Sequence record: SRR31156797_3702 | Strand: one strand, 5' to 3' | Length of the DNA: 45,194 bases | Shown: positions 15,843 through 37,219 of the stretch, piece by piece | How the letters are laid out: every line of letters begins with the position of its first letter | Position numbering within the stretch: position 1 is the stretch's first letter | Notes under the pieces: model-generated | Databases searched by the model: none | Seen by the model: the letters and a program-made list of their open reading frames with translations, nothing else | Told to the model about the DNA's origin: nothing | Position numbers and translations under genes: made by a program

Positions 15843-16760
15843 TTACTATTTCGTTATATGCAACTTTTTTTCCATTAAGATAACTTTAATTTTTAAGCAC
15901 ATAGAACCAATCCTCCAAAATATATGCAGCAGATATTTCATCCCGGATCTGATATATTGACTATAACAGGTTGAAATAGATTACACCTTAACCTTAAATT
16001 AACATTACTTGCCTTCGCTGCAACACTTTACAAATACAGCAATTAGAAAAAAATGGCGCACCTTTGGGGTACTTGCATATAACTTACTGTTCGCATATTT
16101 TCTGATCTCCTGATCATCCGTACTCCTGACGACCATTCCAGGCTTAGAATCATGATCATTTGGAAAACTGCTAACATGGATGTTTAAGAATGCTTTGCCT
16201 CTGCATTTAATTTGGTTGTTATCGTCATTGGCTTAAAATCTGATTCTGTTGCAGCCAAAAGCTTTTATAGGCTTACAGGTTTATCTCTTGTGCCTGGATT
16301 ATTCTGGTGATTCATGGCAAGGATAATCACGGGAGGCTGGCAATTTACAATCCGTAATGAAACGTTTCATCCCAACATTAGTGCCCGGGTTTTCGGATCT
16401 ATTCCTTTGTTGAGCAGCATTACCTTTCCCTGGTCCTATTTGGTTATGGTTATCACAGTATTTACAAGCCAAAAAGGCTGACTTTTATCTAACAACCTCC
16501 TTATTAAATAACAAGTATTAAAAATCCTTAATAAGCGACTCACCTGTGAAGCTATACTTCTACATCAGTCAAATTATATCTCCCACCACCCCAGTACTTT
16601 CAACTGTAAAAATCTACATATTATAATGTGATAAATAATTTAAATAACTGTTAAAGTGGTTGTTAAACTTGATTTATGGGGGTAGGATACAGTAACTTTA
16701 TGCAGTCATTATAAGGAGTAGAACTACCGCTTAAAACCGGTTATTAAAAACAACAATAAA

Positions 16761-17333
16761 TTGATCCACTTAGCCCTTGAGCAAATTATAGCTGAGTTAA
16801 ACAGCTATTTATCTGTAAAAATATCGGAATCCGAACGGGTTATAGCCAATAATCTGCTTACCCAGGATGGCAGCCTGCAAAGTGGTATTGATGATAAAGT
16901 TATAGTATCGCTTGTAAACACCGAAGAAGAGCGTATAGCTCAAGACCCGAATATCTACCACAAGCAACCCGACGGATCGCTTAAAATTCAAAAACCTGAA
17001 ATCAAATTAAACCTGTATATTCTGTTTATCCCATATTTTCCGTCGGATTATAATGAATCACTGAAGATGATCTCGTTGGTGATTAGTTTCTTTCAAAAGA
17101 AAAACAAGTTTACACCGGCCAACACTCCGGATCTTGACCCAAAACTTAAAAACATTACAGTTGAAATGGTAACCATGAATATGGAACAAATTAATCACTT
17201 GTGGGCATCACTGGGAGCAAAATATACCCCATCGGTGCTTTACAAAATGAGGCTTGTTTCCATTGCAGATGATGAAATCGAAGGCACTGGCGAACCGATC
17301 CGGGAAATTTACATCAATGAAAACAACACATAA
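16761..17333 (+). CDS. eCIS cap / tail terminator (DUF4255, Afp16/Pvc16-like)
   Basis: IVSLVNTEEE, LNLYILF, YNESLKMISLVISFFQ, NHLWASLGAKYTPSVLYKMR; TTG start. Confidence 0.88.
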   Translation: MIHLALEQIIAELNSYLSVKISESERVIANNLLTQDGSLQSGIDDKVIVSLVNTEEERIAQDPNIYHKQPDGSLKIQKPEIKLNLYILFIPYFPSDYNESLKMISLVISFFQKKNKFTPANTPDLDPKLKNITVEMVTMNMEQINHLWASLGAKYTPSVLYKMRLVSIADDEIEGTGEPIREIYINENNT

Positions 17334-18435: not shown

Positions 18436-20415
18436 ATGAGTTACAAAACACCGGGTGTTTACGTAAAAGAAGTATCCATATTTCCTCCCTCGGTTGCCGA
18501 GGTGGAAACGGCTATCCCGGCCTTTATAGGATACACCGAAAAAGCGGAGAAAAGAGGGGAACAGCTTAGAAATGTTCCTACGAAAGTTACTTCTCTGCTT
18601 GAGTACACCACTTACTTCGGCGGCGGATACGAGGTATCTTCCGTGGATGTCCAGGTGGATGAAAGCAACAATTATGCTGTCTCCGGGGTCTCTGTCGACA
18701 CCAGATTTTACATGTACGATGCCCTTCGCACATTTTTCGACAATGGCGGCGGGCCGTGCTATATTGTTTCGGTAGGATTGTATGCAGGTGGCACGGTTGA
18801 AATGGGAGATGAAACCGACCCGGCTAACAATCCGGGGCTTCGTGTTGGATTGCACAAATTGAAAGACTATGACGAACCTACCATGATCCTGTTCCCTGAT
18901 GCACCACTTCTTGACCCGGTCAGCAATTTGTATTCTTTGCAAAAACTGGCCCTGGAACAATGCAACCGTCTACAGGACAGAGTTGGTGTGTTTGACCTGA
19001 GTGAAGCTGATGGCTGGTCTGAGGGTATTGAAGCATTCCGGAATAACGTCGGGATCAACAACCTGAAGTATGGCGCTGCCTACACGCCATGGCTCTACAC
19101 AAGCTATGCAAGGGACATCAGCTTCGAAATTTTTAAGGATAACGTGATAGACAGTGGAGACAATCCGCTGGATCTTGCTTTGCTAACATCAGACAGTTCG
19201 CTGAATGACCTGGTCAAAACGGCCAACACAACCGTGGCTGATACCGGAACCATTCAAACTACCGTTGACGGACTGCTGGGCGGTTATCCCACCATTGCCG
19301 ATCATTACAAGGAATTGAAAAATGCTTACCTGGGAACTGAAGCCGATCCCGAATTCAATGCTTTGCTTGGTTTCCTGAGGTCGGTGGCTGTTGCGCTTCC
19401 GGATTGGGCATCTTCACTTTCTGGCAAAAACCTGCTGAACGACCTTGCATCCTATGCCGACCAGGTTTTAAAAGAAGCCGTGCATGCGGTGATCGGATTT
19501 GAAAAGAATCCTGCCATACAGGCGGTTTCAGGAAAAGGCGACGGCGACACCGATACCGATTATACCGGATATGAGTTGCCATTGCCATGGCTGGCCGAAT
19601 ATGACGGAGATGATGATGACCAGGTGCTGGACGACATCGTTTCTGATGGTGAAGATTACAGCAACCTCACCACGTTGGCTATTCCTGCCATCCAAGGCAT
19701 TTTTGACAGCATAGCTTTGTTTATGCAACAAATTGCAGATGCTGGAGATACCCATGCCGAAAACGCCCAGAAAATCCTTTACGAAAACCATTCGATTATT
19801 GGCAATATCGTTAAGAACGTAGAAAAAGAGCTTTCGAAAATTCCACCAAGTGGTGCCATGGCGGGTGTTTATGCCAAAGTGGACAATGACCGTGGCGTGT
19901 GGAAGGCTCCCGCCAATGTGAGCGTGAACTCCGTTTCGGGCGTTACCGAATTTATTGATGATTACGAACAGGAAAGCCTGAACGTGGATGTGAATGCCGG
20001 AAAATCCATCAATGCCATCCGCCCTTTCACCGGAAAAGGAATTTTGGTTTGGGGTGCCCGCACCCTGGCCGGAAACGACAACGAATGGCGCTACATTCCG
20101 GTGCGTCGCTTCTTTAACATGGTGGAAGAATCCGTAAAGAAATCAACCGGCTGGGCCGTTTTTGAACCCAACGATGCCAATACCTGGAACAAAGTGCGTG
20201 GCATGATTGAAGGTTACCTATACCAAAAGTGGCAGGAAGGCGCCCTTCAGGGTGCAAAGCCTGACGAAGCATTCTTTGTGAAAGTAGGCCTGGGGCTTAC
20301 CATGACCCAGCAGGATATCCTGGAAGGTCGCATGATCGTGGAAATAGGAATGGCTGTGGTAAGGCCTGCCGAATTCATCATCCTCAAGTTTTCACACAAG
20401 ATGATCGAATCTTAA
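18436..20415 (+). CDS. Contractile tail sheath protein
   Basis: YKTPGVYVKE, ETAIPAFIGYT, FFDNGGG, PPSGAMAGVYA..D..RGVWKAPAN, VWGARTLAGNDNEWRY, VRPAEFI. Confidence 0.96.
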   Translation: MSYKTPGVYVKEVSIFPPSVAEVETAIPAFIGYTEKAEKRGEQLRNVPTKVTSLLEYTTYFGGGYEVSSVDVQVDESNNYAVSGVSVDTRFYMYDALRTFFDNGGGPCYIVSVGLYAGGTVEMGDETDPANNPGLRVGLHKLKDYDEPTMILFPDAPLLDPVSNLYSLQKLALEQCNRLQDRVGVFDLSEADGWSEGIEAFRNNVGINNLKYGAAYTPWLYTSYARDISFEIFKDNVIDSGDNPLDLALLTSDSSLNDLVKTANTTVADTGTIQTTVDGLLGGYPTIADHYKELKNAYLGTEADPEFNALLGFLRSVAVALPDWASSLSGKNLLNDLASYADQVLKEAVHAVIGFEKNPAIQAVSGKGDGDTDTDYTGYELPLPWLAEYDGDDDDQVLDDIVSDGEDYSNLTTLAIPAIQGIFDSIALFMQQIADAGDTHAENAQKILYENHSIIGNIVKNVEKELSKIPPSGAMAGVYAKVDNDRGVWKAPANVSVNSVSGVTEFIDDYEQESLNVDVNAGKSINAIRPFTGKGILVWGARTLAGNDNEWRYIPVRRFFNMVEESVKKSTGWAVFEPNDANTWNKVRGMIEGYLYQKWQEGALQGAKPDEAFFVKVGLGLTMTQQDILEGRMIVEIGMAVVRPAEFIILKFSHKMIES

Positions 20416-22218: not shown

Positions 22219-23967
22219 ATGCCCGAAAACAGACGCATACCAACTTTGCAATCCACTGACCTGCCCGGGTTTAAGATTTTCTCAGAAGGGAACCAGGTGA
22301 GTGCGGAATACCAGGTTTTGTCGATCGTGGTTACAAAAGAGGTGAACAGGATCAGTACAGCCCGGATTTCGTTTAAAGACGGTTCGCCGGCTGAGGAGGA
22401 TTTCCCGATCAGCAATTCCGATGAATTTATTCCCGGTAAGGCCATCGATATTCAGGCCGGATACCATGGAGAGGAAGAAGTGATCTTTAAAGGGATTGTG
22501 GTGAAAAACAATCTGAAAGCCCGAAAAAACAAACCTTCGGTTTTTGAGGTGATATGCTCGGATATGGCCGTGAAAATGACGGTTGGGAGAAAAAATAAAT
22601 ATTTCTACGAATCCACCGACAGCGATATTATCAACGAAATTGCGTCTGAAATGAGCATCCAAACGGATGTTGAAGACACCACAGTCACATATCAAAGTAT
22701 GGTCCAATATTATGCAACCGACTGGGATTTCATCATTTCACGTGCTGAAGCCAATGGCAAGCTGGTTTTCACAGATGACAATACACTCATCGTGAAAAAG
22801 GCCGACCTTTCAGCATCACCTGAATTGAGCCTGCTATACGGTGGTAACATCATCGCTTTCGAAACGGAGATGGATTCCCGTGATCAGTTTGCCGGTGTAA
22901 AAGCCACCTCGTGGGACAAGGCCAACCAGGAACCGCTGGAAATAGAATCGGGTGCTTTTGCAGGAGACCTGCCCGGTAACATTGACCCGGAGACACTTTC
23001 GGAGGTCGTCGGGCTGGACAGCTTTAAACTGGACCATGGCGGAAGCATTGCAGATGCCGAACTCCAGGAATGGGCCGATGCGCAGAATCAAAAAAGTAAA
23101 ATCTCAAAGATCAAAGGCCGGATCCAGATTCAGGGTTTCTCAGGCGTAAAGCCCGGGCAGATGGTTGAAATGGGTGGCATGGGCGACCGTTTCAACGGAA
23201 ATGCTTTTGTTTCGGCTGTTCGTCACGAGATCAATGCCTCCAACTGGATCACCCATATCGGGCTGGGCATCAATCGAAAATGGTTTGCCGAGGAAGTTGA
23301 CGACATCATCGATGTGAAAGCATCGTCAATGCTACCGGCCATTAATGGATTGCAGATCGGAATTGTAACAGCGCTGGAAGGCGATCCTGACGGAGAATTC
23401 CGTGTGCAGGTGCGTATGCCGCTCATCGACCGGTCGGAAGGCGTTTGGGCACGTGAAGCCCTTTTGGATGCAGGTGACAACCGGGGATCATTTTTCAGGC
23501 CTGAAATCGGTGATGAAGTGGTGCTTGGATTTTTGAACGACGATCCACGTAACCCGGTAATACTGGGTATGCTGCACAGCAGCGCCAAACCGTCGCCGGT
23601 AGAACCCGCAGATGACAATCACGAAAAAGGATTTGTTACACGCAGCGAAATGAAGTTGCTGTTCGACGATGACAAAAAATCCATCACCATCGAAACGCCA
23701 AATGGAAACACCATCCTCATCAGCGACGACGACGGGATGATTGAGGTAACCGACGAAAACAACAACAAAATGACCATGGACAGCAATGGCGTTCTGGTGG
23801 AGTCGGCCAGCGATATCGTGATCAAAGCAACCGGAGACGTAGATATCGAAGGCACCAATGTGAATATCAAAGCAAACGCCCAGATGAAAGCCGAAGGCAG
23901 CGCAGGCACTGAGGTTTCATCAGGCGGTATGACAGAAGTTAAAGGGTCACTCGTAAAAATAAATTAG
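22219..23967 (+). CDS. vgrG: VgrG-like spike protein (Afp8-like)
   Basis: gp27-like N-terminus (VQYYATDWDFIISRAEANG), gp5 OB-fold GSFFRPEIGDEVVLGFLNDDPR, C-terminal beta-helix repeats ending GSLVKIN. Confidence 0.93.
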   Translation: MPENRRIPTLQSTDLPGFKIFSEGNQVSAEYQVLSIVVTKEVNRISTARISFKDGSPAEEDFPISNSDEFIPGKAIDIQAGYHGEEEVIFKGIVVKNNLKARKNKPSVFEVICSDMAVKMTVGRKNKYFYESTDSDIINEIASEMSIQTDVEDTTVTYQSMVQYYATDWDFIISRAEANGKLVFTDDNTLIVKKADLSASPELSLLYGGNIIAFETEMDSRDQFAGVKATSWDKANQEPLEIESGAFAGDLPGNIDPETLSEVVGLDSFKLDHGGSIADAELQEWADAQNQKSKISKIKGRIQIQGFSGVKPGQMVEMGGMGDRFNGNAFVSAVRHEINASNWITHIGLGINRKWFAEEVDDIIDVKASSMLPAINGLQIGIVTALEGDPDGEFRVQVRMPLIDRSEGVWAREALLDAGDNRGSFFRPEIGDEVVLGFLNDDPRNPVILGMLHSSAKPSPVEPADDNHEKGFVTRSEMKLLFDDDKKSITIETPNGNTILISDDDGMIEVTDENNNKMTMDSNGVLVESASDIVIKATGDVDIEGTNVNIKANAQMKAEGSAGTEVSSGGMTEVKGSLVKIN

Positions 23968-23969
23968 AT

Positions 23970-24248
23970 ATGCCGGCAGCAGCACGAATAACTGATACAT
24001 CCACACATGGTGGCACCATTGTAGGGCCTGGCGACCCGACCGTATTGATCGGTGGAATGCCGGCGGCAGTAGCCGGCGACAATCACATTTGTTCCCTGCC
24101 ACCAAATGTGCATCAGCCTACTGTGAGCCCTTTCCCCATGGGAAGCACTACGGTACTTATCGGCGGAAAACCGGCCATCAGGGTTGGCGATGTGTGCATC
24201 TGCGGCGCATCACCGGCCGTTGGGGAACCCACAGTTTTAATTGGATAA
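23970..24248 (+). CDS. PAAR-repeat spike tip protein
   Basis: MPAAARITD..HGG, TVLIGGMPAA, GSTTVLIGGKPAIRVGD, His/Cys residues as likely Zn ligands. Confidence 0.93.
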   Translation: MPAAARITDTSTHGGTIVGPGDPTVLIGGMPAAVAGDNHICSLPPNVHQPTVSPFPMGSTTVLIGGKPAIRVGDVCICGASPAVGEPTVLIG

Positions 24249-24250
24249 TT

Positions 24251-24661
24251 ATGGAACAGGAACATCAATTCATAGGTACAGGATGGGGTTTCCCCCCGAC
24301 ATTCAGAAAGACTGACCAGTCTGTGCAAATGGCTTCCGGAAGGGAAGACATCGAGCAGAGCCTGGAGATTTTGCTCAGCACCCGGGTCGGCGAACGGATC
24401 ATGCAGCCCAAATACGGCTGCAACCTCGACCGCCTGATTTTTGAGCCGCTGGACTCAACATTGGTGACCTTTGTGAAAGACCTGGTTGAAACGGCAATTC
24501 TGTATTTCGAGCCACGTATCCTGGTGAATAAAATTGCTGTGGAACCAGTGCAAAACGAAGGCAAACTGGAGATCAACATCGATTATACCATCGCGGTCAC
24601 CAACACGCGATACAACTATGTTTTTCCATTTTATAAAACCGAAGGAACCGAGGTATCATAA
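24251..24661 (+). CDS. GPW/gp25-family baseplate protein (Afp9-like)
   Basis: FIGTGWGFPP, DIEQSLEILLSTRVGERIMQPKYGC, FEPRI, NYVFPFY; true start is the ATG at 24251 just after the PAAR stop. Confidence 0.92.
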   Translation: MEQEHQFIGTGWGFPPTFRKTDQSVQMASGREDIEQSLEILLSTRVGERIMQPKYGCNLDRLIFEPLDSTLVTFVKDLVETAILYFEPRILVNKIAVEPVQNEGKLEINIDYTIAVTNTRYNYVFPFYKTEGTEVS

Positions 24662-27600
24662 TGAGCGAAAAGTGTTATAAGTTGAATCCGCTACAGCGGG
24701 ATGGAACCAATCAGAATCAGCGCATGGTGCAGGCGTTGCACCCTGCGTATGTTTCGGTGGATGAGCGCGAAATCGACGATCTGCTCATGTATGCCCGGCG
24801 GCTTGCCGAAAACATCAGGCATTACAACAATGCCAACGAACGAAACGGCGACTGGCTGGCTTTCATCGAAAACGACATCTCCACGCTGGTTTCCATCATC
24901 CTGAACAAAGACCTCGATGTGTTGAAATCATTATTTGATGACGCTTATCAGTTAACTACCTCATCAACCATTGACCAAAAGATTGATGGTATAGGTAATG
25001 AATTCAGGATATTATTCAGCATTTTTATTGAAGTAGATGCTTGGTATAAAAATTCGGTGACAGGCCTGGAGTTGGAAAAAGCACTTCAGGTTAAGATCAG
25101 GTCTGCTTTTAACGAAGCTTTGCGGAACGTGATTTCATTGTGCAGGATTTTTAAGGAAGGTACTGCACTCGATCCCTGCCTGATGGATACATCCTCTCTC
25201 GACGATATCTGGAACACCGAAAATATTGAAGACACCAGCCTGGTGGACGACCCGGCAGATTTGGCCGGCAGCGCTGAAGCCCTGAATATAATGGCCGGCG
25301 AACTGAAGCTGACCTTTGAAAAAGTATTTGGAGAACTGGAGGAATTGCAGGAAGCAGCTCCCGGCTATCTGGCCGAAACTCTGGAAAGCTACCCCGAACA
25401 CCAGCCTTACATGGCGCTGTTCCTGACCTTCCTGAGCCTTTTCATGCACGCCCGAGACCACATTAACACAATCACACGCAGGCACCTCAATTTTTATTAC
25501 CAGGATGTACTCCGGATTGAAAGCGCACCGGAAATTCCGGATCGTGTGCACATGATTTTCGAATTGGCCAGGGCTTTTCAAAGTCACCTGGTAGAAAAGG
25601 GAACCGCCCTCAAGGATGGAAAAGACCTCAATGGAGCAGAAATCTTTTTTTCCACCGACAACGAGTTGGTGGTCAATAAGGCGAAGATAGGTCCGGAAAC
25701 AGCCTTCAAATCCATTTTTATCGATAAGGCATATGATGCTGAAAATCCGGATCGCGATACGCCTTTTGAGATCAAAAATATTTATGCCGCTCCCATTGCA
25801 AACTCGCTTGATGGCCGTGGTGCCGACCTGGAAGATGAAGACGGCAAATGGCAGACGCTCGGGAACCACGAAATGCCCTATGCCAGCATCGGCTTTGCCA
25901 TCAGTTCGCCCATTCTTTTGCTGAATGAAGGCAGCCGGTCCATCACCTTCTCTTTTGACTTTGATGATCCGGATCAGGAAATTTTTGGCAAGGGTGTTTA
26001 TCACGAACAACTTGTTGCTTGCGAACTGAAGAATAATATGTCTGTGGAATTCAGTGGAGCGGAAGCATGGATTCCCGGAAAGATCATCGAAACGGAAGTT
26101 GAAAACCTTTCGGGAACAAAAGGCAGGTACACCTTTAAAGTTGAACTGGCACCGGAATCTCCACCGGTTGTGGATTACGATGATGAAGTACTGCTGGCCG
26201 GCTTTTCAGCCAAATTCCCTGTGGCCCGGTTTATCCTGAACAATGAAGGACTGGATGTGATATATCTCCCCGGATCCTTTGAACCGCTGGAGGAATTTGA
26301 CGAATTTACCAAAGTGAGCGACTGGCTTGCGGCACGGGCAATAAAGCTCCTCAACAACATGAGTTCCGCAGAGGAACTGGCAGGCATTGAACCACAGGAT
26401 GGCCCGGTGGTTGACAACCCTTTCACGGGATATGGCGACCAGATTGATGATTACGACATCGGGATCACTGTTGCCAAGCGCATCATCAACAAAAGAAATG
26501 GCTATGCCGGCAACAAATTTTCAAACCTGCGACAACTAAGAGGGATCAGTGGTTTTGGGGTTGACAAGTTGAACGACCTGCTCTATTCCGTAGATTGCCC
26601 CGACGTACAAAATATTCTGGACGAAAGCCCTGAATTTAATTCGGATGAAACCTATGCGCTGAATAATACGGTTTTCTACAACGAAGAATTATATAAATCG
26701 CTGATCGGTGACAACAAGGGTTTCAGGCCGGATGTAAATCCCGATCAGTGGATGCACATCGAAAAGTCATACCCCTATAAATATTTCAGGCCGCTCACAT
26801 TTGAAAAACTAAATATTAAAGTTGAAGTTACCGGTGTAAAGGACATCATCGTGGAAAACGATACCGGCCGGCTGGATTCGGCAAAACCATTCATGCCTTT
26901 CGGCCCAGTGCCCAAAGTAGGGAGCAGTTTTTACATCGGCAGCCGGGAAATCTTCAAGAAATATCTGGCCGGTCCTGATGCTTCGGAGGTGGATATTCAT
27001 GTTACCTGGACCAACCTGCCGGAGGATGGTTTTAATGATCATTACGCCAATTACCAGTACAAATCAGGCGGCAGTTTCGTTAAATATTTTGATGGCACCA
27101 ACGACGATTTCACTGCAAACATTGAGGTGCTGCACAAAAGCCGGTGGCATAACTTTGCTTCCAATCAAAAGCTTTTCAACTCCAGTGGCGACAATGTGTT
27201 GCCTGATAAGACATTTGAATTAAACGACCTGATCTCTGACAGGAATCCAACTTTAAAGGATTTTGAAGCCTACGGCCATGGCTACGAAAGAGGCTTCATA
27301 CGGTTTAAGCTAAACCGGGATTTTCTCCATAAATATTACGCCGAGGCCATGACCACATCAGCGCTAAATCCGGATAATATTGGCACTCCCCGTGAGCCTC
27401 ACACACCTGTTATCTCAGAAATCTCCCTGGATTACACCTCCTCCAGAGAAATCGATTTTACCCAACTGGATAAAAAAGACTTTGACGACCGTATCGAAAA
27501 GATGTTTCACATCCGCCCATTTGGCATCAATGAGTTTTTTGCCATTGATGATGATCCGGACGAAGAAATTTACACATCCCAAATGCTGGTTCCCGGATTT

Positions 27601-28857
27601 TTGATCACCGAGAAAAATGAAGAAACCGGCGAATTCATCACTGATCTGAACGGGAATCCCAGAAAAACGGACAGCGAGGGAACACTCTATATTGGCATTG
27701 ATGACCTGATGCCGGAACAAAACCTGTCGATCCTTTTCCAGGTGGCTGAAGGCAGCGAAAATCCCGGGAAAGAAAAACAGGAAGTCCGCTGGCATTATTT
27801 GTCTTGCAACATCTGGAAGGAGTTTGAACTCACGCAGATCATTTCCGACGATACCAATGGGCTCCTTCGCTCCGGCATCATCAAATTTTCGATGCCAAAA
27901 ACCATGACCAATGAAAACACTGTTTTGCCTCAGGGCAAACATTGGATCAGGGCCACGGTGGCAAGGAGTAGCGATGCCATTTGCAAAACCATCGCCATTA
28001 TGCCACAGGCTGTTTTAGCCACTTTTGTCAAGAGTGAGGAAAACGACCTGAACCGGCTCATCGAGCCCCTTGCGGAAGAATCGGTAACGAAAATGAAACC
28101 CGGCCATGCCGCCATTAAAAAGATATTGCAGCCCTTTGCCTCTTTCGGAGGCCAGGTAGCCGAACTTTCAGGCGATCCGGAAAATGCCGGCAAGGAAAAT
28201 AATGCCTACTACACCCGTGTAAGCGAACGACTGCGCCACAAACAACGCGGCATCACCATTTTTGATTACGAACGCCTGGTATTGCAGCAGTTTCCTGAAG
28301 TTTACAAGGTTAAATGCATCAACCACACCAGCGGGGAAAGTGAGCATCATCCCGGCTATGTGACGGTGGTGGCTATTCCGGACCTGCGCAACAAAAATGC
28401 TGTGGATCCGCTGGAACCACGTCTCAGCCTCAACAAACTGGAAGAGATAAAAAAATTCCTCAATCCGCATATCTCTGATTTCGTAACCCTGGATGTAAAA
28501 AATCCGGATTACGAAAAAGTACAGGTTTCTTTCAACGTACAGTTTTTGCCCGGCAAAGACAAGGGCTTTTACACCAGCCGGCTGCAGGAAGACATCCGCA
28601 AATTCCTTACGCCCTGGCTTTACGATGAAGGCAAGGACCTGATCCTGGGTGGCAGCGTACACCGCTCGGCGGTACTGAATTATATCGAAGAAACGGATTA
28701 CGTGGATTTCCTCACCGACTTCAAAATGTTTCACACCAACAGGATGGGCATTAAAAAAGAAGTGGAGGAAGCCAAAGCATCCACATCATCATCAACGCTG
28801 GTTTCGAGCAGCGAACACATTATAAATTTTGATATCGAAGTAGCATGCCTGAAATAG
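24661..28857 (+). CDS. Baseplate J/gp6-like protein (Afp11-like), 1398 aa, with inserted HhH and CBM-like modules
   Basis: RDGTNQ..R, QPYMALFLTFL, RRHLNFYY, PFMPFGPVP, QPFASFGG, RVSERLRHKQR...DYERLVLQQFP. Confidence 0.9.
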   Translation: MSEKCYKLNPLQRDGTNQNQRMVQALHPAYVSVDEREIDDLLMYARRLAENIRHYNNANERNGDWLAFIENDISTLVSIILNKDLDVLKSLFDDAYQLTTSSTIDQKIDGIGNEFRILFSIFIEVDAWYKNSVTGLELEKALQVKIRSAFNEALRNVISLCRIFKEGTALDPCLMDTSSLDDIWNTENIEDTSLVDDPADLAGSAEALNIMAGELKLTFEKVFGELEELQEAAPGYLAETLESYPEHQPYMALFLTFLSLFMHARDHINTITRRHLNFYYQDVLRIESAPEIPDRVHMIFELARAFQSHLVEKGTALKDGKDLNGAEIFFSTDNELVVNKAKIGPETAFKSIFIDKAYDAENPDRDTPFEIKNIYAAPIANSLDGRGADLEDEDGKWQTLGNHEMPYASIGFAISSPILLLNEGSRSITFSFDFDDPDQEIFGKGVYHEQLVACELKNNMSVEFSGAEAWIPGKIIETEVENLSGTKGRYTFKVELAPESPPVVDYDDEVLLAGFSAKFPVARFILNNEGLDVIYLPGSFEPLEEFDEFTKVSDWLAARAIKLLNNMSSAEELAGIEPQDGPVVDNPFTGYGDQIDDYDIGITVAKRIINKRNGYAGNKFSNLRQLRGISGFGVDKLNDLLYSVDCPDVQNILDESPEFNSDETYALNNTVFYNEELYKSLIGDNKGFRPDVNPDQWMHIEKSYPYKYFRPLTFEKLNIKVEVTGVKDIIVENDTGRLDSAKPFMPFGPVPKVGSSFYIGSREIFKKYLAGPDASEVDIHVTWTNLPEDGFNDHYANYQYKSGGSFVKYFDGTNDDFTANIEVLHKSRWHNFASNQKLFNSSGDNVLPDKTFELNDLISDRNPTLKDFEAYGHGYERGFIRFKLNRDFLHKYYAEAMTTSALNPDNIGTPREPHTPVISEISLDYTSSREIDFTQLDKKDFDDRIEKMFHIRPFGINEFFAIDDDPDEEIYTSQMLVPGFLITEKNEETGEFITDLNGNPRKTDSEGTLYIGIDDLMPEQNLSILFQVAEGSENPGKEKQEVRWHYLSCNIWKEFELTQIISDDTNGLLRSGIIKFSMPKTMTNENTVLPQGKHWIRATVARSSDAICKTIAIMPQAVLATFVKSEENDLNRLIEPLAEESVTKMKPGHAAIKKILQPFASFGGQVAELSGDPENAGKENNAYYTRVSERLRHKQRGITIFDYERLVLQQFPEVYKVKCINHTSGESEHHPGYVTVVAIPDLRNKNAVDPLEPRLSLNKLEEIKKFLNPHISDFVTLDVKNPDYEKVQVSFNVQFLPGKDKGFYTSRLQEDIRKFLTPWLYDEGKDLILGGSVHRSAVLNYIEETDYVDFLTDFKMFHTNRMGIKKEVEEAKASTSSSTLVSSSEHIINFDIEVACLK

Positions 28858-31800
28858 ATCATCTCATAAAGAATCTGAAGCTCAAACCCAGCCAGGATTG
28901 GGCTTTGCTGCGCAGCGAAGGGATCACCCACATCGAAAAGCTGGCCAGCAGGCTGTGGACGGATTATAACGTCCATGATCCGGGGATTACCATCCTGGAA
29001 TTGCTTTGCTATGCCATTACCGATCTCGGCTACCGCACCGATTTTGAGATTAAAGATTTGCTGACCAGGCTCGTGAATGGCAGCGATCCGGATACCGGGG
29101 ATTTTTATACCGCGGCAAAAATCCTGCCTTCTTCAGCTGTTAGCTTCGATGACCTCCGCAAACTTTTGATCGACATCACCGGTGTCCGCAATGCCTGGGT
29201 GTCGAAAAATACCGAAATCAGCTATTGTCTCGACACGGCTGATCATTTACTGAAAGACACCTGCACAAAAAGCACAGATGAACAACTGGCCCCACTCAAC
29301 GGGCTTTATGATGTTTTGATCCAGACGGAAGACAACATCACCGACGAGCCACGCTACAGCTATGCGGCAAAAAAAGATAATGCCGGCGATGGCGGTTATG
29401 TGACTGCCGGAACCAAAGGCATCGAATTTAAAGTGTTATACACGTTCACATTGCAATTGGTTTATGTTTATGCCCAAAATCCGGGAATGGTTAACGTGAG
29501 ATTGTTGCGGAAAAATGAATCCGGTGTTTACCAGGCTGTTGAATCTGTAAGCCAGGATATTCCAAATGCCGATGAAAAAACAGCAATTATCACCGGCTTT
29601 GCACTTGACCCGGGCGAGTACCGTCTGGATGCCAATGGCTCGGCAACGCCGCTTTTCAGTAACAACAATTACGATTATTCAAGGGTTTTTCCCAACCTGC
29701 TTCACCTGCAAAATGGCTACAGCGGATCGGCAAAAAACGCCAAATATTACTTTTTCTATGATTGGAAAGTCTCATTCGTGGTTTCACCTTTCGACAAGGA
29801 GTTACTGGATTCCGGGGAATTGTTCGAAGGGATTGCCGGGCTGTCAATAAAAGACACCGGCATCAGCGGAGGTTTCATTTTGCCCGGTGGCAAGGGACTA
29901 CAGTTCAATGTTTATTCAACGCTTTACCTCAGCACCATTACTGTATTCCCCGAAAGTTCCGGCAACATCCAGGTTACCATTTCGGATGGCAACGGGAATG
30001 AAATTTATGCACATGCATTTGATGTTGAACCGGCACCCGATGAGGGGTTTATACTCTACCTGGACACAAAACTGGATCCAGGAAGTGGATATGAAATCAA
30101 AGCCGATGGATCGGTTAAGCTTTATCGTGATACCGGAGTTACCAATTTTCAGGCTGAACCCAATCCTGTACTGGAGATCAAAAAAGGAATTCCTACAGCA
30201 GATTATTACTTTTTCTTTTATCACTGGGAATTTGAGTACTACCACCCGGTGCCATTTACATCACGCCTCACACTGGAGGAAGTTATGCTTGCTGTTGAGG
30301 ACACCATCTACAAACACCGCAACCTTTGCGAAGACCTGATGCACATCCGTGATCTCGAACGGGAATTCATAGGTGTTTGCGCAGACATAGAAGTGGGTGA
30401 TGATGCCAATATTCAGCAGGTAATGGCCGATATATTCTTTGAACTGGAGTTTTATGTTTCGCCACCGGTGATCTTTTACACCATCGAAGAATTGCAAAAA
30501 CGAGGCTACACCACCGATGAAATTTTTGAAGGGCCCTCACTGCAGCACGGATTTATTGATGATGCTGAATTTCAAAAAATCCAGCGAACCTGCTTCCTGC
30601 GTACTTCGGATATTATCCAGATCATCATGGATGTGCCGGGTGTGAAAGCCGTAAAGAATATTTCATTGCTAAGCTATACAGAAGTTACGCCGGAAAACCC
30701 CATAAAACCGGGCGATCAGGTTGTTACCATCGATGGAACACAATTTATTGTCCGCGAAGAAGACTGGATTCTGGAGCTGGCCAACCCGGCAAAAATGGCA
30801 CCGGATTTCGATCCTGAGAAATCAAAAATCGTATTTTATAAAGACGGCCTGCCCTATCTGCCAAACATCAACAAAGCACTTGACCTTTACAACGAACGCC
30901 GTTCGCTGATGTCATCCCGTAAACTCATCGGCATTCAGCGGGATTTCCCCGTGCCTGTGGGCGAGTTTATGGATGTTGAAAAACACTTCCCAATCCAAAA
31001 CGACCTGCCGGCCACCTATATGGTCGGATCGCATCGTGTGCCTGATTCAGAGACTGATTTACGGCGGGCACAATCTCGTCAGCTCAAGGGATACCTGATG
31101 TTTTTTGAACAGATACTTGCCAACTATTTCTCCCAACTGAGCCATATCCGGGAGTTGTTCAACTGGAAAAATAATGAAATCAAAACCTACTTTACCCAGA
31201 TTGTGAAAGACATTCCGGGTATCGAAGACATATACAGCTGGGATGAATCCATCACCGACCCGGGAATGGCCGAACAGGTATTGGAAAAGCTCAACGAAAT
31301 TATTGAGTCACCCAAAGTTGCCGAAGAACGCAAGAATCGCTTTTTGGATCATCTCATGGGCCGGTTTGCCGAAGATTTTACCGAATACAGCCTTTTGATG
31401 TATTCGGTGTATAAAAAATCTGCTGCAAAAAAACTCATCAGTGACAAGCGCGATTTCCTCAACGATTATCCTTTGTTGAGCCGGGATCGCGGACTCGGAT
31501 TTGACTACCGCTACCCCTTTGCAAGCGAAAATATTACCGGCCTGCAGCGCAGAGTGAGCCGACTGATGGGGTTCGATGATGTGAGCCGCCGCAACCTGGC
31601 AGGAAGTAGTCTCAGGATCGACAGGCTGGAATCTGACGAAGGAGAAAACTGCCCGAAAGACAGCTGGCGCTTTGAATACGTAGATGCAGAGGATCAGGTG
31701 CTCTTCCAAAGTGTTTGTTGCAAAAGCCGCGACAATATTTGCATTTTACTGGATGCTGCCATCCTGATTGGTGCCTGCCCCGACAATTACCGGTTTGCTG

Positions 31801-32474
31801 AAATCGGTGGCAAATGGCAATTGCTTAATGCCTGTGAGGATGAAGAGGTAATCGGGACCATGGTGGTTGATGGAGATAATGCACTGGCAGAAGTCCAGGC
31901 CTATTTTGCAAAACTGGCAGGCAACGAGGGCTTCCACGTGATTGAGCATATCCTGCTTCGCAAACGGATTGAAGAAGACGACTTCATGCCGGTTCAGCTC
32001 AACGATCCGGGCACGGACTGTGAGGACGCCTGTGTGGAGGTAAAAGACCCATACTCTTTCAGGGCAACCGTGTTTTTACCTGCCTGGCCAAAACGATTCC
32101 AGAACATACGCTTCAGGCGCCTGATTGAACGCACTTTGCGAATGGAAGCGCCGGCACATGTTTATCTGAAAATATGCTGGCTCAGTCACTGCGACATGCT
32201 ATCATTCGAAAAAATATACAACGAATGGCTGGCTGTCTTCAGCAGGGTGGGTGTTGAATACAAGGGAAAACCCGACATCAGCCTTTCCGTTTTTACACCT
32301 GGCAGCGACGCGTATGAATTACTTGCGGAACACAACGAAAAATTGTCGGAACTGATCGGAAAACTGCATGGCGTGGACAATGTTCAGCCACTTGCAGCAC
32401 TGCACGACTGTCTGAACCCGGACAGTGAGAACCCACAAATTACACTCAATCAAATGAGTTTAGGATCACAGTAA
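28845..32474 (+). CDS. Second baseplate wedge protein (Afp12-like), 1209 aa
   Basis: WTDYNVHDPGITILE.LCYAITDLGYR, RNLCED, QLKGYLMFFEQILANY, NRFLDHLMGRFAE, EGFHVIEHILLR, DPYSF, EAPAH. Confidence 0.88.
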   Translation: MPEIDHLIKNLKLKPSQDWALLRSEGITHIEKLASRLWTDYNVHDPGITILELLCYAITDLGYRTDFEIKDLLTRLVNGSDPDTGDFYTAAKILPSSAVSFDDLRKLLIDITGVRNAWVSKNTEISYCLDTADHLLKDTCTKSTDEQLAPLNGLYDVLIQTEDNITDEPRYSYAAKKDNAGDGGYVTAGTKGIEFKVLYTFTLQLVYVYAQNPGMVNVRLLRKNESGVYQAVESVSQDIPNADEKTAIITGFALDPGEYRLDANGSATPLFSNNNYDYSRVFPNLLHLQNGYSGSAKNAKYYFFYDWKVSFVVSPFDKELLDSGELFEGIAGLSIKDTGISGGFILPGGKGLQFNVYSTLYLSTITVFPESSGNIQVTISDGNGNEIYAHAFDVEPAPDEGFILYLDTKLDPGSGYEIKADGSVKLYRDTGVTNFQAEPNPVLEIKKGIPTADYYFFFYHWEFEYYHPVPFTSRLTLEEVMLAVEDTIYKHRNLCEDLMHIRDLEREFIGVCADIEVGDDANIQQVMADIFFELEFYVSPPVIFYTIEELQKRGYTTDEIFEGPSLQHGFIDDAEFQKIQRTCFLRTSDIIQIIMDVPGVKAVKNISLLSYTEVTPENPIKPGDQVVTIDGTQFIVREEDWILELANPAKMAPDFDPEKSKIVFYKDGLPYLPNINKALDLYNERRSLMSSRKLIGIQRDFPVPVGEFMDVEKHFPIQNDLPATYMVGSHRVPDSETDLRRAQSRQLKGYLMFFEQILANYFSQLSHIRELFNWKNNEIKTYFTQIVKDIPGIEDIYSWDESITDPGMAEQVLEKLNEIIESPKVAEERKNRFLDHLMGRFAEDFTEYSLLMYSVYKKSAAKKLISDKRDFLNDYPLLSRDRGLGFDYRYPFASENITGLQRRVSRLMGFDDVSRRNLAGSSLRIDRLESDEGENCPKDSWRFEYVDAEDQVLFQSVCCKSRDNICILLDAAILIGACPDNYRFAEIGGKWQLLNACEDEEVIGTMVVDGDNALAEVQAYFAKLAGNEGFHVIEHILLRKRIEEDDFMPVQLNDPGTDCEDACVEVKDPYSFRATVFLPAWPKRFQNIRFRRLIERTLRMEAPAHVYLKICWLSHCDMLSFEKIYNEWLAVFSRVGVEYKGKPDISLSVFTPGSDAYELLAEHNEKLSELIGKLHGVDNVQPLAALHDCLNPDSENPQITLNQMSLGSQ

Positions 32475-32497: not shown

Positions 32498-35400
32498 ATG
32501 GATACGCAGCATTTTTTTCCAGACTTTAAGCCCAACCAGGTTCTAACCAGTACCCAGCTCAACCAGTTGCGCCAGTACCTTGTTGATCAAACAAGGTTAA
32601 GCAGGGTGCGCCTCACTGGAACCGGCATCATTTGCGGCCTCTACGGAAACACCAACACTGGCGAAACGATAAAGATAACCGGGGGTTACGGGATTACCAC
32701 GGATGGATACATCATCGAAATACCAGATACAATCTATCCGAAATTCAGGAATTATTTCGATCCGGATACCGTTGATCCTGAAAACGACGATGACGATCCA
32801 TACCCGGAATATGAACCATGGAGAACCATTGCCATTCCCTGGCAACAGATTCCCATCCTGGAGCTGATGAGCGAGGAGGTACTGAACGATCCTGATTTTG
32901 TGGAACAGGAAGACAACCCTACACAGGACCTGAGTGCTGAGATACTGGATGGAAAAGTGCTGGTGTTGTATCTCGAAATGTTTGATGACCCCCTCAAATC
33001 ATGTATCGTAACCGATTGCAACAACAAAGGTGAAAATGTTGTACTCACCGTTCGGGCATTGCTCATTGATAAAGCATTTCTGGATGAAGTTCAGCCCTGC
33101 GGCGAGAAAGATGAACTGATCCATTTCCCGAAATTAAATGCCTGGCTTCAAACAAAAGGAAAAAACCTGTCAGATGTAGAAAATAGCGGAGAGCTCAATA
33201 AAGCATATCAAAATTTGGCTTTAAAAGCCGTTGATCAGATCAACGATAAAGTTACGAAAGCCTATAACAAATATAAGTCGATCTTAAACCTCGAACCCCA
33301 GTTCACCGAAATGGTGGCCGGCCTGTCGGATACATTGGATAATGTGACCGGCGGCAGTTTTAATCAGTATCATTTTGATTTCGTACGAAACCTGGCAAGG
33401 TCATTCAATGAATTTGCCGATACGATTTGTCCGCTCGTGAAAACGTGCATGGCTGATGGTGCTTCCCCCCGGCACCTGATGCTTCGCGATTTTATACACG
33501 ATGAGGCCGGCATGGGTGATTCGGGGAAATACCGGCATTATTTTATGCCATCCCCGGCCAGAAACGTATTACACGAAGACCTGGAAAAAGCCCAAAAGCA
33601 ATTCGCGCGAATTTTGCACCTGGCATATAATTCTGATTTTGGTTCGGCTGATGCGATAAAAATTACGCCCGGTAAAACGCCTGCTCATCCACCTGGCGAA
33701 AATGCGATACCCCATTATTACAAGCTGGGTGCGGTGGAAAAATGGTGGCAACCCGATGGTTGCTGTGAACTCCATCCGCCGCTTTCCTATCATAAAAATA
33801 AAATGGCCCAATCGCCGGATTCCATTATGCCGCTTGATACTCAGGCTCATCCGCTGCATCTCGATCCCGGCAGGTTCAACTTTTATAATATCGAAGGCAT
33901 AATGGGTAAGCAGCTTGGTGATGCCATTCAAAAACTGGAAAAAATCAAAAAGGATTTCAACCTGGAGTTCGATTTGCTGGGCCTGAGTTTCGATCAGTTT
34001 GAGGGTGGTGGTGTTTACCAGGGCCTGGAGCCGATGATCGAATTGCTGAAAGAGATCGAAACCCTCAGACAAACGCTGGAAATTGCAATCATAGATGGTG
34101 TGGAAGAAAACCAGGAACTGATCATGGAATTGCTTGAAGAAATCGCTGCCAAAGAAACAGCGGTTCTTGAACTGAACACAACATGGATTGAGCAGCGCAG
34201 GGCGATATCGGCAAACTGCAATATTTCGCACCTTCAGGCCGACTACCTGCAACTGCGCAGTGAGCTGATTTGCACTTATCAGAGCATATTGCAATCGCTG
34301 GATAAAATTCCGGAAATACCTCCTCCACAGGCCGGGGACGGTTGTGTTGACTTCGATGAGCTTGAACCTGAAACAATGTTCGATGGTGACGACTTCCCTC
34401 CCGGAAGCGAAATATTCAGCGAAAGCAACATCCCCGTAACATTGCATGAATATTTCTGGACCAACGGAGGCATAGGATACAACTGGGCTATGGTTCAGCC
34501 GGCAACCGCCGATTTCGGTGAAGGCAATATTATGTGGACCAACAACGTGAACCTGGGCTTTGATTTTACCAATCTTGAAACGGCACCTAACAAGGTTTCC
34601 TTCCTTTATAAAAATGATGGCGGATCAGAGAACATCCAGGTGAATGGCGGTGAGCGTGAAATCGTAAGGATCAGGAATGCCGAAGGAGAAATTGCCCCGG
34701 GCGTATTTCTCGAAGTAAATGTGATTAGTGAAGATGCCGGCATTTTCATGGCCATTCTTACCGGGCCTGTTCAGGACCTGAAAGTCGGCGGTCAGGAATT
34801 TTCTATCGATCAGGTATGTGCAACGGCCGATGAAGCGAGTGTTCCCTCCTATCCATTAAAAATTGTAAATCTCAAACGGCAATCGCTGGAAAGGTCTGTT
34901 TTTAAATTGGTGATTAAGCGCAACAACGCAAAATCCCCGGAAGAAAAAGGAAAATACAGCATCAGAATTGAACGACTCAATAAGGAAAAATCAAACCTCG
35001 AAAATATCAGTAAAATCTCCGGTTCGGTGAACAGGCTGATCAATGATGTGATGGTGAACAGCCATATCTCAGGTATGAAAAGACGTACCGGTGGAAATGG
35101 TTTGAGCCCGATGGCTGCTGCCGGCGCCAACCCCACCCAGGACCTGGCCTATGGCTTTTTCATGGCTGTACTCGATCTGCGTTCCCGTATTTCCCTGCTG
35201 CTCGATATCCTGCCAAAAGATGTCCGCGGATTCAACTACCTGCTTTACAGCAACACCGTAAAAGAGATACTGGAACAGATTGTAAGAGTCCGCATGTTTG
35301 TGAATTACCTGTTGGATGTTTTGGTGGCAGGGAGCGGAACAATAGCACCGCTGATGCGATTCCTGGCAGGGCCGTTATTGTCATCCATGACAAAGAACCT

Positions 35401-37219
35401 GGCCCAGCTCATGGATTTTATGAATGCCTATTTCAAAATCCGGTACAACTGTTTCCCGGCTCAACTGGCTACCATTTATTTCCATTTGGAACATTTGATG
35501 AATCTGCACCTGGCCAACTTCGGCAAATTCGCTCATAAGCATCCGGGAATGGAGCACATTGCAGGCGTTCCAAAAGGTGGGACATTTATCCTGGTGGGTG
35601 AAAAAGCACAGATAAATCAATTGGTGCGTGCTGATTTTGCATTAAACGGAATGGCTGAGTGTTGTTGTGAAATCGATCCCGAAGACATTTGTCTGCCGCC
35701 CATCGCACGCATCGACAACAGGCTGGCCGAAGCTGAAATTGACCCGCAAACCGGGGCACTGCTACCAATAGATATTACTATTGACATAATGGGCAACGAC
35801 CTGAACCTGAACAAACCCGGAACAGCCTTTGAACTCAGCCTGAAATCAGAAGTATCCAGAATGGGTGCTTCCCTGAGCATTATTGATGACGATGATGGCA
35901 GGAAGTTGATTAGATATGTACTTCAGGAACCCCAATTGGGAATCGATGAATTCGCCTACGAAATAACTGAAAATACAGAGCGTTGCCAGCTATCCGACAA
36001 CGGAAAGGTGATCCTGATGGTTCGCCAAAAATCAAATGTACCCATGTATGCAGGTGGTGACCTCGCTGTTACACACCAAAATACACCCGTGATTGTGGAT
36101 GTAGCGTTGAATGATGTATTGAATCCGCAAATGCTGGATTCCGGTTATTCACTCACAGCTAACGCCACTACGCCAAATGGAAACATTGTGGAAGTGATCA
36201 CCATTGAAGACCGCCGGGCTGCACTTCATTTTATACCCATAGAAGGATTTACCGGCCGCGACCAGTTTGCTTATACCATCAACTTTGCCAACACCAGAGC
36301 GTCAGGCATTGTAACAGCTTTGGTCATTCCATGCTGCGATGGTCAGGGTCAGGGTCAGGGATCAGCGCCGGCAATGATTAGCGGAAGCGTTTTCGAACGC
36401 ACCGTTGAAGGGCTGGAAGGTGCCCTGTCAGGTGGTACCGCATCCCTGATGCAAAGTGGAAACACCCTCAAAAACACGGTAATCAACAAAGGACAATATA
36501 CTTTCAGGAATGTTTCTTCGGGAACTTATGACATTCAATTGGCGCGGGTGAATGCAGCCACAGGTGAACCCACCCACGAGACCAAAGTCCTCAATAATAT
36601 TGTGGCTAATGAGGGTCAAACCACTACACTCGAACTGGTTTTTCTGGATGAAATCCCCAGGGGAAACAGCCCCGGCTTTTCCTTCCCGCGTGATCTCAAC
36701 CAACTGGAACCGCTTATCGCAAACCTGGAGAACAACGCTGGTTTTAAAAAAGCTGAAGCACAAAAAGTAGTGCTTGATACATTGCCGCCAAGAATGGCCG
36801 CCCGAACGGATATTGTAAACGAAATAAAAAATGGCGGACTTGTAGCCGATGGCGAACTGCTTGAAAAAACCGGAGATCTGGTTTCAGGTAAGTTGCTGTC
36901 AGAAGGCGGCAGCACCATGCGCACGTACAAGCAGACTATGACCAAACTGATCAGTAACCATGCATCATCCAGGGGTGCTGAAAAAACAGCATACCGCGCA
37001 CTGATTGATTCAACGGTTACGTCGATGCTGGATGAAATTGCCGTTTCGGATATTTCGCATTTATCCCAGGGCAAACAAAAGCACGTCACCGACGTCATCG
37101 CGCAGTTGAAGGAAGCCGGCATTTCAACCAACAGCATCCGCAAAATGTGGAAAAGCGGAACATTGAAGGACGATCTGAAGATATCCGCAGTAACCAAAAT
37201 GAATAAGTTTTTAACATAG
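32498..37219 (+). CDS. Large tail-fibre-like protein (Afp13 position), 1573 aa, with Ig-like modules
   Basis: N-terminal FKPNQVLTSTQLNQL..YL..Q.RLSR..L.G.GIICGL, typical of the Afp13-position protein; HPGMEHIAGVPKGGTFILV; C-terminal Big_9-like and carboxypeptidase-regulatory-like segments. Confidence 0.7.
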   Translation: MDTQHFFPDFKPNQVLTSTQLNQLRQYLVDQTRLSRVRLTGTGIICGLYGNTNTGETIKITGGYGITTDGYIIEIPDTIYPKFRNYFDPDTVDPENDDDDPYPEYEPWRTIAIPWQQIPILELMSEEVLNDPDFVEQEDNPTQDLSAEILDGKVLVLYLEMFDDPLKSCIVTDCNNKGENVVLTVRALLIDKAFLDEVQPCGEKDELIHFPKLNAWLQTKGKNLSDVENSGELNKAYQNLALKAVDQINDKVTKAYNKYKSILNLEPQFTEMVAGLSDTLDNVTGGSFNQYHFDFVRNLARSFNEFADTICPLVKTCMADGASPRHLMLRDFIHDEAGMGDSGKYRHYFMPSPARNVLHEDLEKAQKQFARILHLAYNSDFGSADAIKITPGKTPAHPPGENAIPHYYKLGAVEKWWQPDGCCELHPPLSYHKNKMAQSPDSIMPLDTQAHPLHLDPGRFNFYNIEGIMGKQLGDAIQKLEKIKKDFNLEFDLLGLSFDQFEGGGVYQGLEPMIELLKEIETLRQTLEIAIIDGVEENQELIMELLEEIAAKETAVLELNTTWIEQRRAISANCNISHLQADYLQLRSELICTYQSILQSLDKIPEIPPPQAGDGCVDFDELEPETMFDGDDFPPGSEIFSESNIPVTLHEYFWTNGGIGYNWAMVQPATADFGEGNIMWTNNVNLGFDFTNLETAPNKVSFLYKNDGGSENIQVNGGEREIVRIRNAEGEIAPGVFLEVNVISEDAGIFMAILTGPVQDLKVGGQEFSIDQVCATADEASVPSYPLKIVNLKRQSLERSVFKLVIKRNNAKSPEEKGKYSIRIERLNKEKSNLENISKISGSVNRLINDVMVNSHISGMKRRTGGNGLSPMAAAGANPTQDLAYGFFMAVLDLRSRISLLLDILPKDVRGFNYLLYSNTVKEILEQIVRVRMFVNYLLDVLVAGSGTIAPLMRFLAGPLLSSMTKNLAQLMDFMNAYFKIRYNCFPAQLATIYFHLEHLMNLHLANFGKFAHKHPGMEHIAGVPKGGTFILVGEKAQINQLVRADFALNGMAECCCEIDPEDICLPPIARIDNRLAEAEIDPQTGALLPIDITIDIMGNDLNLNKPGTAFELSLKSEVSRMGASLSIIDDDDGRKLIRYVLQEPQLGIDEFAYEITENTERCQLSDNGKVILMVRQKSNVPMYAGGDLAVTHQNTPVIVDVALNDVLNPQMLDSGYSLTANATTPNGNIVEVITIEDRRAALHFIPIEGFTGRDQFAYTINFANTRASGIVTALVIPCCDGQGQGQGSAPAMISGSVFERTVEGLEGALSGGTASLMQSGNTLKNTVINKGQYTFRNVSSGTYDIQLARVNAATGEPTHETKVLNNIVANEGQTTTLELVFLDEIPRGNSPGFSFPRDLNQLEPLIANLENNAGFKKAEAQKVVLDTLPPRMAARTDIVNEIKNGGLVADGELLEKTGDLVSGKLLSEGGSTMRTYKQTMTKLISNHASSRGAEKTAYRALIDSTVTSMLDEIAVSDISHLSQGKQKHVTDVIAQLKEAGISTNSIRKMWKSGTLKDDLKISAVTKMNKFLT

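Follow-up and report, generated by a model that had tools for sequence, protein, structure and literature searches.

The closest described relatives of the baseplate protein studied here belong to two contractile injection systems (CIS). In AlgoCIS, domain IV of the baseplate protein Alg11 (residues 278-643) is a hexameric 'spike cage' that holds two carbohydrate-binding modules; the authors of the AlgoCIS paper hypothesise a role of the cage in attachment and, in their conclusions, describe one of its sites as an evolutionary hotspot (PMC8894135). All3317, from the thylakoid-anchored CIS of Anabaena (7b5h), also has a cage domain. The authors of that structure state that what this domain does 'remains unknown' and leave open whether it is an effector compartment or a receptor. 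Target recognition by cage-bearing (clade Ib) CIS is likewise an open question. Here we describe a stretch of DNA of 45,194 nucleotides from sequence record SRR31156797_3702 (hereafter the window), in which a baseplate gene at 24661-28857 (+) encodes a protein of 1398 residues. The open reading frame (ORF) list and matches to PDB sequences identify it as an Afp11/Cis11/Alg11-type baseplate wedge protein with a spike-cage domain. This cage carries an additional two-module cassette, made of a variant tandem helix-hairpin-helix ((HhH)2) domain and a small domain of the CBM5/12 (carbohydrate-binding module) fold, which gives an experimental handle on both questions.

Among PDB sequences, the best match of the protein is All3317 (chain 7b5h_AH, E 1.1e-154), followed by Alg11 of the same family (chain 7aeb_G, E 1.3e-139), with weaker relatives from Salmonella salamae (9rce) and Photorhabdus (9qgl), Pvc11 and Afp11. 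The gene neighbourhood is also that of Alg11, with gp25 upstream and a large wedge partner downstream. The family model TIGR02243 matched the C-terminal part only, with 25.3 bits, below its equivalog cut-off of 155.8; this model was evidently built on shorter relatives.

The insertion in the spike cage

HMMER paired Alg11 96-392 with residues 235-527 of the window protein and Alg11 402-638 with residues 706-971, the cage region included. Between these blocks the alignment jumps, residue 527 corresponding to chain position 392 and residue 706 to position 402. Alg11 therefore has 10 residues where the window protein has about 179, and no HhH or CBM5/12 module is described for it in the available sections of the AlgoCIS paper. 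With All3317 the jump is from residue 506 (chain position 493) to residue 700 (position 529); where the cassette is inserted, All3317 has 36 residues, and it gave no match to the HhH profile. Because of these jumps, about 160-180 residues are extra and without counterpart in Alg11 or All3317, and residues ~528-700 are a real insertion in the baseplate protein. The insertion point falls inside the equivalent of Alg11 domain IV. The features of this region are the following.

26110-26253 (+): cage beta segment just before the insertion, residues 484-531 (segment profile)
26242-26760 (+): whole insertion relative to Alg11 and All3317, residues ~528-700, ~173 residues (HMMER alignment gaps)
26242-26337 (+): linker and extra N-terminal helix, residues 528-559 (helix at model residues 35-47, block pLDDT, the predicted local distance difference test, 87-95)
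26338-26589 (+): variant (HhH)2 core, residues 560-643 (family-level matches to HHH_3, fold matches)
26389-26454 (+): acidic loop of 22 residues in place of the turn of hairpin 1, residues 577-598, ending GYGDQIDDY before D-I-G (alignment, charge)
26551-26559 (+): canonical G-F-G turn of hairpin 2, residues 631-633, followed by invariant D-K (17-sequence alignment)
26590-26760 (+): CBM5/12-fold module, last 57 residues of the insertion, residues 644-700 (Pfam, model)

A preliminary description of this DNA had pointed out a ComEA-like HhH segment in the protein. Translation of 26341-26590 (+) gives residues 561-643 of the 1398-residue ORF, and the string obtained is the peptide quoted there.

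Two other origins of the extra residues were considered and rejected. A recent foreign acquisition of the cassette is at odds with its GC (guanine plus cytosine) fraction, 0.470 against 0.469 for the whole gene, and with its retention in homologues down to 56% identity. An assembly or frameshift artefact is at odds with the continuous reading frame and with the same architecture on independent contigs.

The distribution of the domain was followed in 401 sampled Bacteroidota genomes. An Afp11-type C-terminal match was found in 61 of them and the HhH variant in five, all five within the 61 and all in Afp11-sized frames. The HhH variant is thus, in this sample, a minority trait among Afp11 relatives. 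Together with the alignments to Alg11 and All3317, this bears out the earlier suggestion that the HhH segment is inserted rather than a universal part of Afp11. In genome collections, the relatives are Bacteroidota metagenome-assembled genomes (MAGs), of Lentimicrobiaceae, Cyclobacteriaceae and Bacteroidales. A scan of viral contigs found nothing, and a search of the ESM Atlas gave no usable match.

The position of the insertion was mapped by placing the profile of the cage beta segment (residues 484-531) relative to the HhH domain in 32 HhH-bearing Afp11-like proteins. The order found in the window, segment, HhH and CBM tail, was observed in 12 of the 32, all with the CBM tail. In the other 20 the HhH domain precedes the segment; 19 of these have no CBM tail and one carries tails after the segment. 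The HhH module thus occurs on either side of one cage element of ~45 residues.

Three genomes with an HhH-bearing Afp11 were searched for other copies of the domain. Apart from the Afp11 copy itself, these yielded a single weak match (E 1.9e-6), inside a frame of 2604 residues in genome G003. The corresponding locus (L019, G003:C136, 3987-11768) holds an ORF of 2594 residues with a weak HhH match and without a Pfam family. After this ORF come genes for a PG_binding_1 protein and for a phospholipase-D protein, an arrangement reminiscent of the PG_binding_1 gene that ends the window locus.

The variant HhH domain and its family

Pfam HHH_3 (PF12836) was the sole Pfam match on the whole protein, with E 0.16 and 12.5 bits, which misses the gathering cut-off of 27. 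On a 123-residue piece the match reached E 0.0051 and 17.3 bits, over profile positions 22-58 of 65, also below the cut-off. Among 45 aligned relatives, 36 matched HHH_3 at E <= 0.01 (best 2.2e-07), and some passed the cut-off, such as P0019 (50.5 bits) and P0033 (29.5 bits). Comparison with the HHH_3 profile, which had been proposed as a check, is therefore negative for the protein taken alone and positive for its family.

An AlphaFold2 model of residues 520-710 (191 residues) was built from the 45-sequence alignment. Its block pLDDT was 88-98 over model residues 21-130, except in the blocks spanning the loop (51-80; 81, 77 and 54). The top two Foldseek matches were KIF22 (probability 0.91, E 0.32) and TEFM (0.82). 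In a VIA search, which does not depend on Foldseek, the N-terminal domain of TEFM (5ol9) came first, with Z 8.8 and a root mean square deviation (rmsd) of 2.2 over 77 of 81 residues. It was followed by KIF22 (2edu, 7.2), Fft3 (6.4), Tex (5.7), ComEA (5.7, 26% identity), the ComEA-related 2duy (4.7, 30% identity), and PolC and Pol III alpha (4.4-4.5). On the tool's scale, such Z values are intermediate, but the top rows are consistently (HhH)2 domains and cover the whole domain. TEFM and KIF22, the closest solved folds, are eukaryotic, share 18-20% identity with the window domain and have no loop, so that the likeness is one of fold only. The family-level matches and the fold evidence together settle the HhH identity, despite the Pfam score below cut-off, and residues 561-643 are, as modelled, a tandem (HhH)2 domain.

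With ComEA-type HHH_3 domains, the window domain shares the five-helix tandem HhH fold, the canonical second hairpin and an N-cap Asn in the first helix. It differs from them by the 22-residue acidic loop, by D-I-G in place of G-I-G, by the extra N-terminal helix and by its net acidic character. A Gly-hydrophobic-Gly turn in both hairpins is typical of HhH domains. Here it is present in hairpin 2 (G-F-G) and absent from hairpin 1, where an invariant Asp opens the D-I-G motif. The ComEA-like tandem fold announced in the preliminary description is thus upheld by the family matches and by the modelled structure. Hairpin 1 departs from ComEA, and the best fold match is TEFM. The structural alignments paired 90-101 model residues with 62-77 chain residues of the ComEA/TEFM-type matches, which fits a loop of 22 residues; its interruption of hairpin 1 explains why Pfam sees just positions 22-58 of HHH_3.

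No other stretch of the protein is as well conserved as this Asp-, Gly- and Pro-rich loop, whose identity is 82-100% in eight close homologues, against 62-90% for the flanks. Residues N565, P587, G590, G592, Y598, D599, I600, G601, G633, D635, K636, N638 and D639 are invariant in 17 homologues, and the segment is thus no chance resemblance. Across 45 distant members, L561, N565, D585, P587, I600, G601, A605, I608, G631, G633, D635, K636, D639 and L640 are near-invariant. The variant has diverged far from HHH_3; indeed, a scan of genome G002 with Pfam HHH_3 found six HhH places and missed the Afp11 copy.

The HhH domain is also absent from solved structures. A profile of the HhH domain (4 sequences) matched no solved chain among PDB sequences at E <= 1, and hence no solved CIS baseplate protein carries it. 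A search of PDB sequences with a 163-residue piece returned just a designed Kelch protein, without significance.

A profile of the 84-residue core was then compared with 1.84 billion representative sequences and gave 293 matches at E <= 1e-3, 86 of them at E <= 1e-10. At the latter threshold, the loop-bearing HhH variant therefore amounts to a domain family with 86 or more representative clusters. Architectures were taken from the 150 matches listed, out of the 293, and fall into four classes.

At least 62: complete domain in the first 40 residues, proteins otherwise unrelated (N-terminal type)
At least 19: Afp11-like, as assigned by script (one, P0072 of ~1860 residues, probably misfiled)
At least 5: domain internal to other proteins
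At least 64: partial matches (fragments, a ~262-residue family, ordinary secreted multi-HhH proteins)

In the N-terminal type (for instance P0022, P0023, P0030 and P0035, within the range P0019-P0165), which is the main setting of the variant, the domain starts at about residue 15-30 of proteins of 100-1250 residues, which on inspection have no leader resembling a signal peptide. Ten of them were scanned with Pfam. Five carry Kelch propellers of the galactose/glyoxal-oxidase type with an E-set domain like that of galactose oxidase, one has two HhH copies and LysM, and four show no other recognisable domain. The cluster members of 10 proteins gave two names, a Nitrospinales MAG and a Geminicoccaceae MAG. 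A tblastn search of plasmids with P0022 gave no match, and a word-index search with the N-terminus of P0023 gave three proteins.

Among the proteins with an internal copy, the TcA-like P0018 has the HhH variant at 391-460, just before matches to ABC_toxin_N and to a neuraminidase-like domain, and also has a TcB-binding domain. In P0106 the internal copy is accompanied by VRP1 and tachylectin matches. Receptor-binding insertions are found in the TcA proteins of Tc toxins; by analogy, the HhH variant of P0018 could be an accessory binding domain grafted on a delivery machine. TcA and CIS are different machines, related here solely via the shared module. The HhH variant thus links CIS baseplates, TcA-like proteins and N-terminal-type proteins.

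Several further groups were noted. P0114, with an internal HhH variant, was judged TcA-like from its N-terminal sequence alone. The ~262-270-residue family carries a version of the variant with a shorter loop. Another group (P0070, P0072, P0079, P0094, P0096, P0109, P0150 and P0156) consists of proteins of ~1600-2050 residues with several HhH copies and an N-terminal motif L-P-x-R-L-E-T-R-F followed by R-I-Y-P-D; no Pfam family was matched in it beyond HhH-clan and T2SSK matches.

A literature search, supplements excluded, returned no report linking an HhH module with a CIS baseplate, a spike cage or a Tc receptor-binding domain. A catalogue of receptor-binding proteins of extracellular contractile injection systems (eCIS) treats fibres, and its accessible text has no mention of HhH, helix-hairpin or DNA binding (PMC12923769). 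Extensions of Cis11-type cages are already known; the HhH module would be a new element on a CIS baseplate, as we found no mention of one.

The CBM5/12-fold module and the role of the cassette

The last 57 residues of the insertion were analysed separately, as was the same region of related proteins. CBM_5_12 is the sole Pfam match in five of five tails, with the full profile covered and E-values from 0.036 (window) to 2.2e-5. A model of the tail made from 14 sequences had pLDDT 84-87 over residues 21-60. Foldseek matched it with probability 1.00 to 1ed7 (TM-score on the target, TMt, 0.75; rmsd 1.8 over 44 columns) and to 2d49 (TMt 0.69), with E of 0.03-0.05 for the pair. In VIA, chitinase modules gave Z 5.9-6.2, and modules of phage baseplates, fibres and tailspikes matched as well (Pa193 5.7, 7-7-1 5.3, phiAB6 5.0). 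Residues 644-700 are thus modelled with the small three-stranded beta fold of chitin-binding domains, as in ChiA1, ChiC, SmChiB, a Vibrio deacetylase and the fibre modules of Pa193, 7-7-1 and phiAB6. The tail recurs in 13 other proteins, one of which (P0028) has two clear and one marginal tandem copy. No part of the protein evolves faster than this tail, whose identity is 39-77% in the eight close homologues. The same model also matched two chains of the Anabaena CIS, 7b5h_AE (a 100-residue baseplate chain) and 7b5i_AB (cap complex), and from these matches it seems that several CIS components make use of the small CBM5/12 fold.

We consider it established how both modules fold, where the cassette is inserted, which residues are conserved and how the variant is distributed. 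The insertion is a two-module cassette, a divergent (HhH)2 domain plus a CBM5/12 fold, in the spike cage of a clade-Ib Cis11/Alg11-type protein. As for its role, we favour, with a probability of roughly 45%, an accessory surface-attachment device on the cage, present six-fold around the spike tip. The cage would be a hexamer of the baseplate protein around the spike, so that the distal tip of the particle would be encircled by six cassettes, which would supplement the tail fibres in target attachment. In this view the CBM5/12 module would bind to a surface of polysaccharide type, and the conserved loop would be the HhH variant's own putative binding site.

This reading follows from the position on the cage, the pairing with a CBM fold, the recurrence at two sites, the slowly evolving loop beside a fast CBM tail, and the carbohydrate-related companions of the variant elsewhere. 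Indeed, a loop that is the most conserved part of the protein and a CBM tail that is the least conserved are what would be expected of a fixed functional site beside a fast-evolving binding module.

Several observations weigh against this reading. CBM_5_12 scores 14.5 bits in the window and 24.8 in the best relative, none of the five tails reaching the cut-off of 26.2, and the Foldseek E-values of the tail model are weak (0.014-0.05). In chitin-binding modules, exposed aromatic residues stack on the polysaccharide. In an alignment to the chitin-binding domain 2rts, which is itself not significant (E 0.49), R-V-G stands opposite K-Y-W. Compared with chitinase modules, the window tail would therefore have no evident surface aromatic pair, as far as this weak alignment tells, and because non-aromatic residues stand opposite the chitinase K-Y-W, chitin binding itself is doubtful. 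In addition, the galactose-oxidase-like companions may be enzymes rather than lectins.

The preliminary description had suggested another role, DNA binding. A sequence-independent hold on duplex DNA, as in ComEA, would tether particles to extracellular DNA of biofilms or lysed cells, or to the nucleoid before release. The matched folds include the DNA-binding (HhH)2 domains of KIF22, Tex, ComEA, 2duy, PolC and Pol III alpha, and hairpin 2 keeps the canonical G-F-G turn with a conserved Lys. The charge of the domain can be read both ways. The core has a net charge of -2, of which the loop contributes -6, so that the domain without its loop is at +4 (pI 9.9). The whole domain is nevertheless acidic throughout the family (median -4 in the 45 aligned members and -4 in the 86 domain matches), and the insertion as a whole is at -17 (pI 4.2). 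A control on the second half of the domain gave a median of -0.5 for the variant (n=86) and -1 for ordinary HhH repeats (n=37). It does not discriminate between the two. Net charge was therefore dropped as an argument against DNA binding, and the argument from hairpin 1 alone was kept. In hairpin 1, an invariant Asp replaces the first Gly and the conserved loop of charge -6 precedes it, unlike a phosphate-binding turn. Furthermore, the HhH domain has a carbohydrate-binding fold as its companion rather than nucleic-acid domains, its sequence has moved far enough from HHH_3 to escape the scan of G002, and it resembles TEFM more than ComEA. The N-terminal domain of TEFM is not known to bind nucleic acids. 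We regard a DNA tether as unlikely; the CBM module and the spike-cage position make surface attachment the more likely of the two.

Alternatively, the HhH domain could be a protein-protein adaptor that, on the cage, holds an accessory fibre, a membrane anchor or a neighbouring particle and, elsewhere, serves as an N-terminal tag joining variable C-termini to a common partner. A leaderless domain at the N-terminus of proteins with varied C-termini, as in the at least 62 cases among the 150 matches listed, is the usual architecture of an attachment or trafficking tag. According to the AlgoCIS paper, one site on the cage binds short fibres in metamorphosis-associated contractile structures (MACs) and anchors the type VI secretion system subtype iv (T6SSiv) to the inner membrane (PMC8894135), and N-terminal baseplate-anchor domains are known in eCIS fibres, according to the accessible part of the receptor-binding catalogue (PMC12923769). 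However, no N-terminal-type protein was found in the three searched genomes with an HhH-bearing Afp11, no second HhH copy lies beside the Afp11 gene in the window or in loci L001-L010, and we can name no candidate partner. Docking is thus also an unlikely role.

A broader proposal, which we find rather improbable, treats the acidic-loop HhH variant as a hitherto undescribed, transferable ligand-binding unit common to several toxin-delivery machines, namely CIS cages, TcA-like shells and proteins of the oxidase, lectin or LysM type that carry it as an N-terminal tag. On the particle it would form a 'landing pad' for nucleic acid or another polyanion, possibly bridged by cations via the loop. 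If this were true, the first receptor of the injection system would be extracellular DNA or a matrix polymer. A purely structural decoration, in which the cassette would stabilise or enlarge the cage without an external ligand, for instance as a cation-binding strut through the Asp-, Gly- and Pro-rich loop, has precedents in the lineage-specific extensions without assigned function reported for SalCis11 and the Anabaena cage domain, but it is very unlikely, since a strut has little reason to occur at the N-terminus of at least 62 unrelated protein clusters among the matches listed, needs no fast-evolving CBM-fold partner and would hardly recur at two insertion sites.

The injection system locus and neighbouring genes

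The baseplate gene lies in a complete eCIS locus. The order spike, PAAR, gp25, baseplate gene and wedge partner is the CIS order, as judged by Pfam on the neighbours. The components are as follows.

16761-45116 (+): whole eCIS locus, with cap, sheath, tubes, spike, PAAR, baseplate, fibre-like protein, tape measure, ATPase, eCIS_core and PG_binding (Pfam)
16761-17330: Pvc16_N cap (Pfam)
18436-20412: sheath (Pfam)
Between sheath and spike in the locus listing: two gp19-type tube proteins and one CIS_tube protein (Pfam)
22219-23964: VgrG-like spike (Pfam)
23970-24245: PAAR (Pfam)
24242-24658 (+): gp25-like sheath initiator, directly upstream of the baseplate gene (GPW_gp25, E 3.9e-26)
28845-32474 (+): ORF of 1209 residues in the Afp12/Cis12 position (gene order alone)
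Downstream of the 1573-residue Big_9 protein described below: CIS tape measure, then AAA ATPase (Pfam)
41189-43498: eCIS_core (DUF4157) protein of 770 residues, downstream of the AAA ATPase (Pfam)
43614-45113: PG_binding_1 protein of 500 residues (Pfam)

The 1209-residue ORF at 28845-32474 had zero Pfam matches. The next ORF (32498-37219, 1573 residues) has an Ig-like Big_9 domain as its sole Pfam match and may be a tail fibre. The 770-residue eCIS_core and 500-residue PG_binding_1 proteins are candidates for cargo or for an accessory role in the locus; an ORF of 268 residues at 40375-41178 gave no Pfam match.

Outside the locus, a hybrid PAS histidine kinase with a receiver domain adjoins a CheB-CheR fusion with PAS_10 (118-4956, -). 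Two adjacent GH13 enzymes of 680 residues each, one of the pullulanase type and one with CBM48 and an alpha-amylase C-terminal domain, are encoded at 5306-9480; their relationship is only distant (30% identity over 123 residues). The gene at 12008-15241 (-) encodes an FAD/Fe-S oxidoreductase of 1077 residues with Fer2_4, Pyr_redox_2, 4Fe-4S, BFD-like and DAO domains. A 1.5-kb gap (15242-16760), richer in AT and holding short ORFs only, separates this oxidoreductase gene from the eCIS operon.

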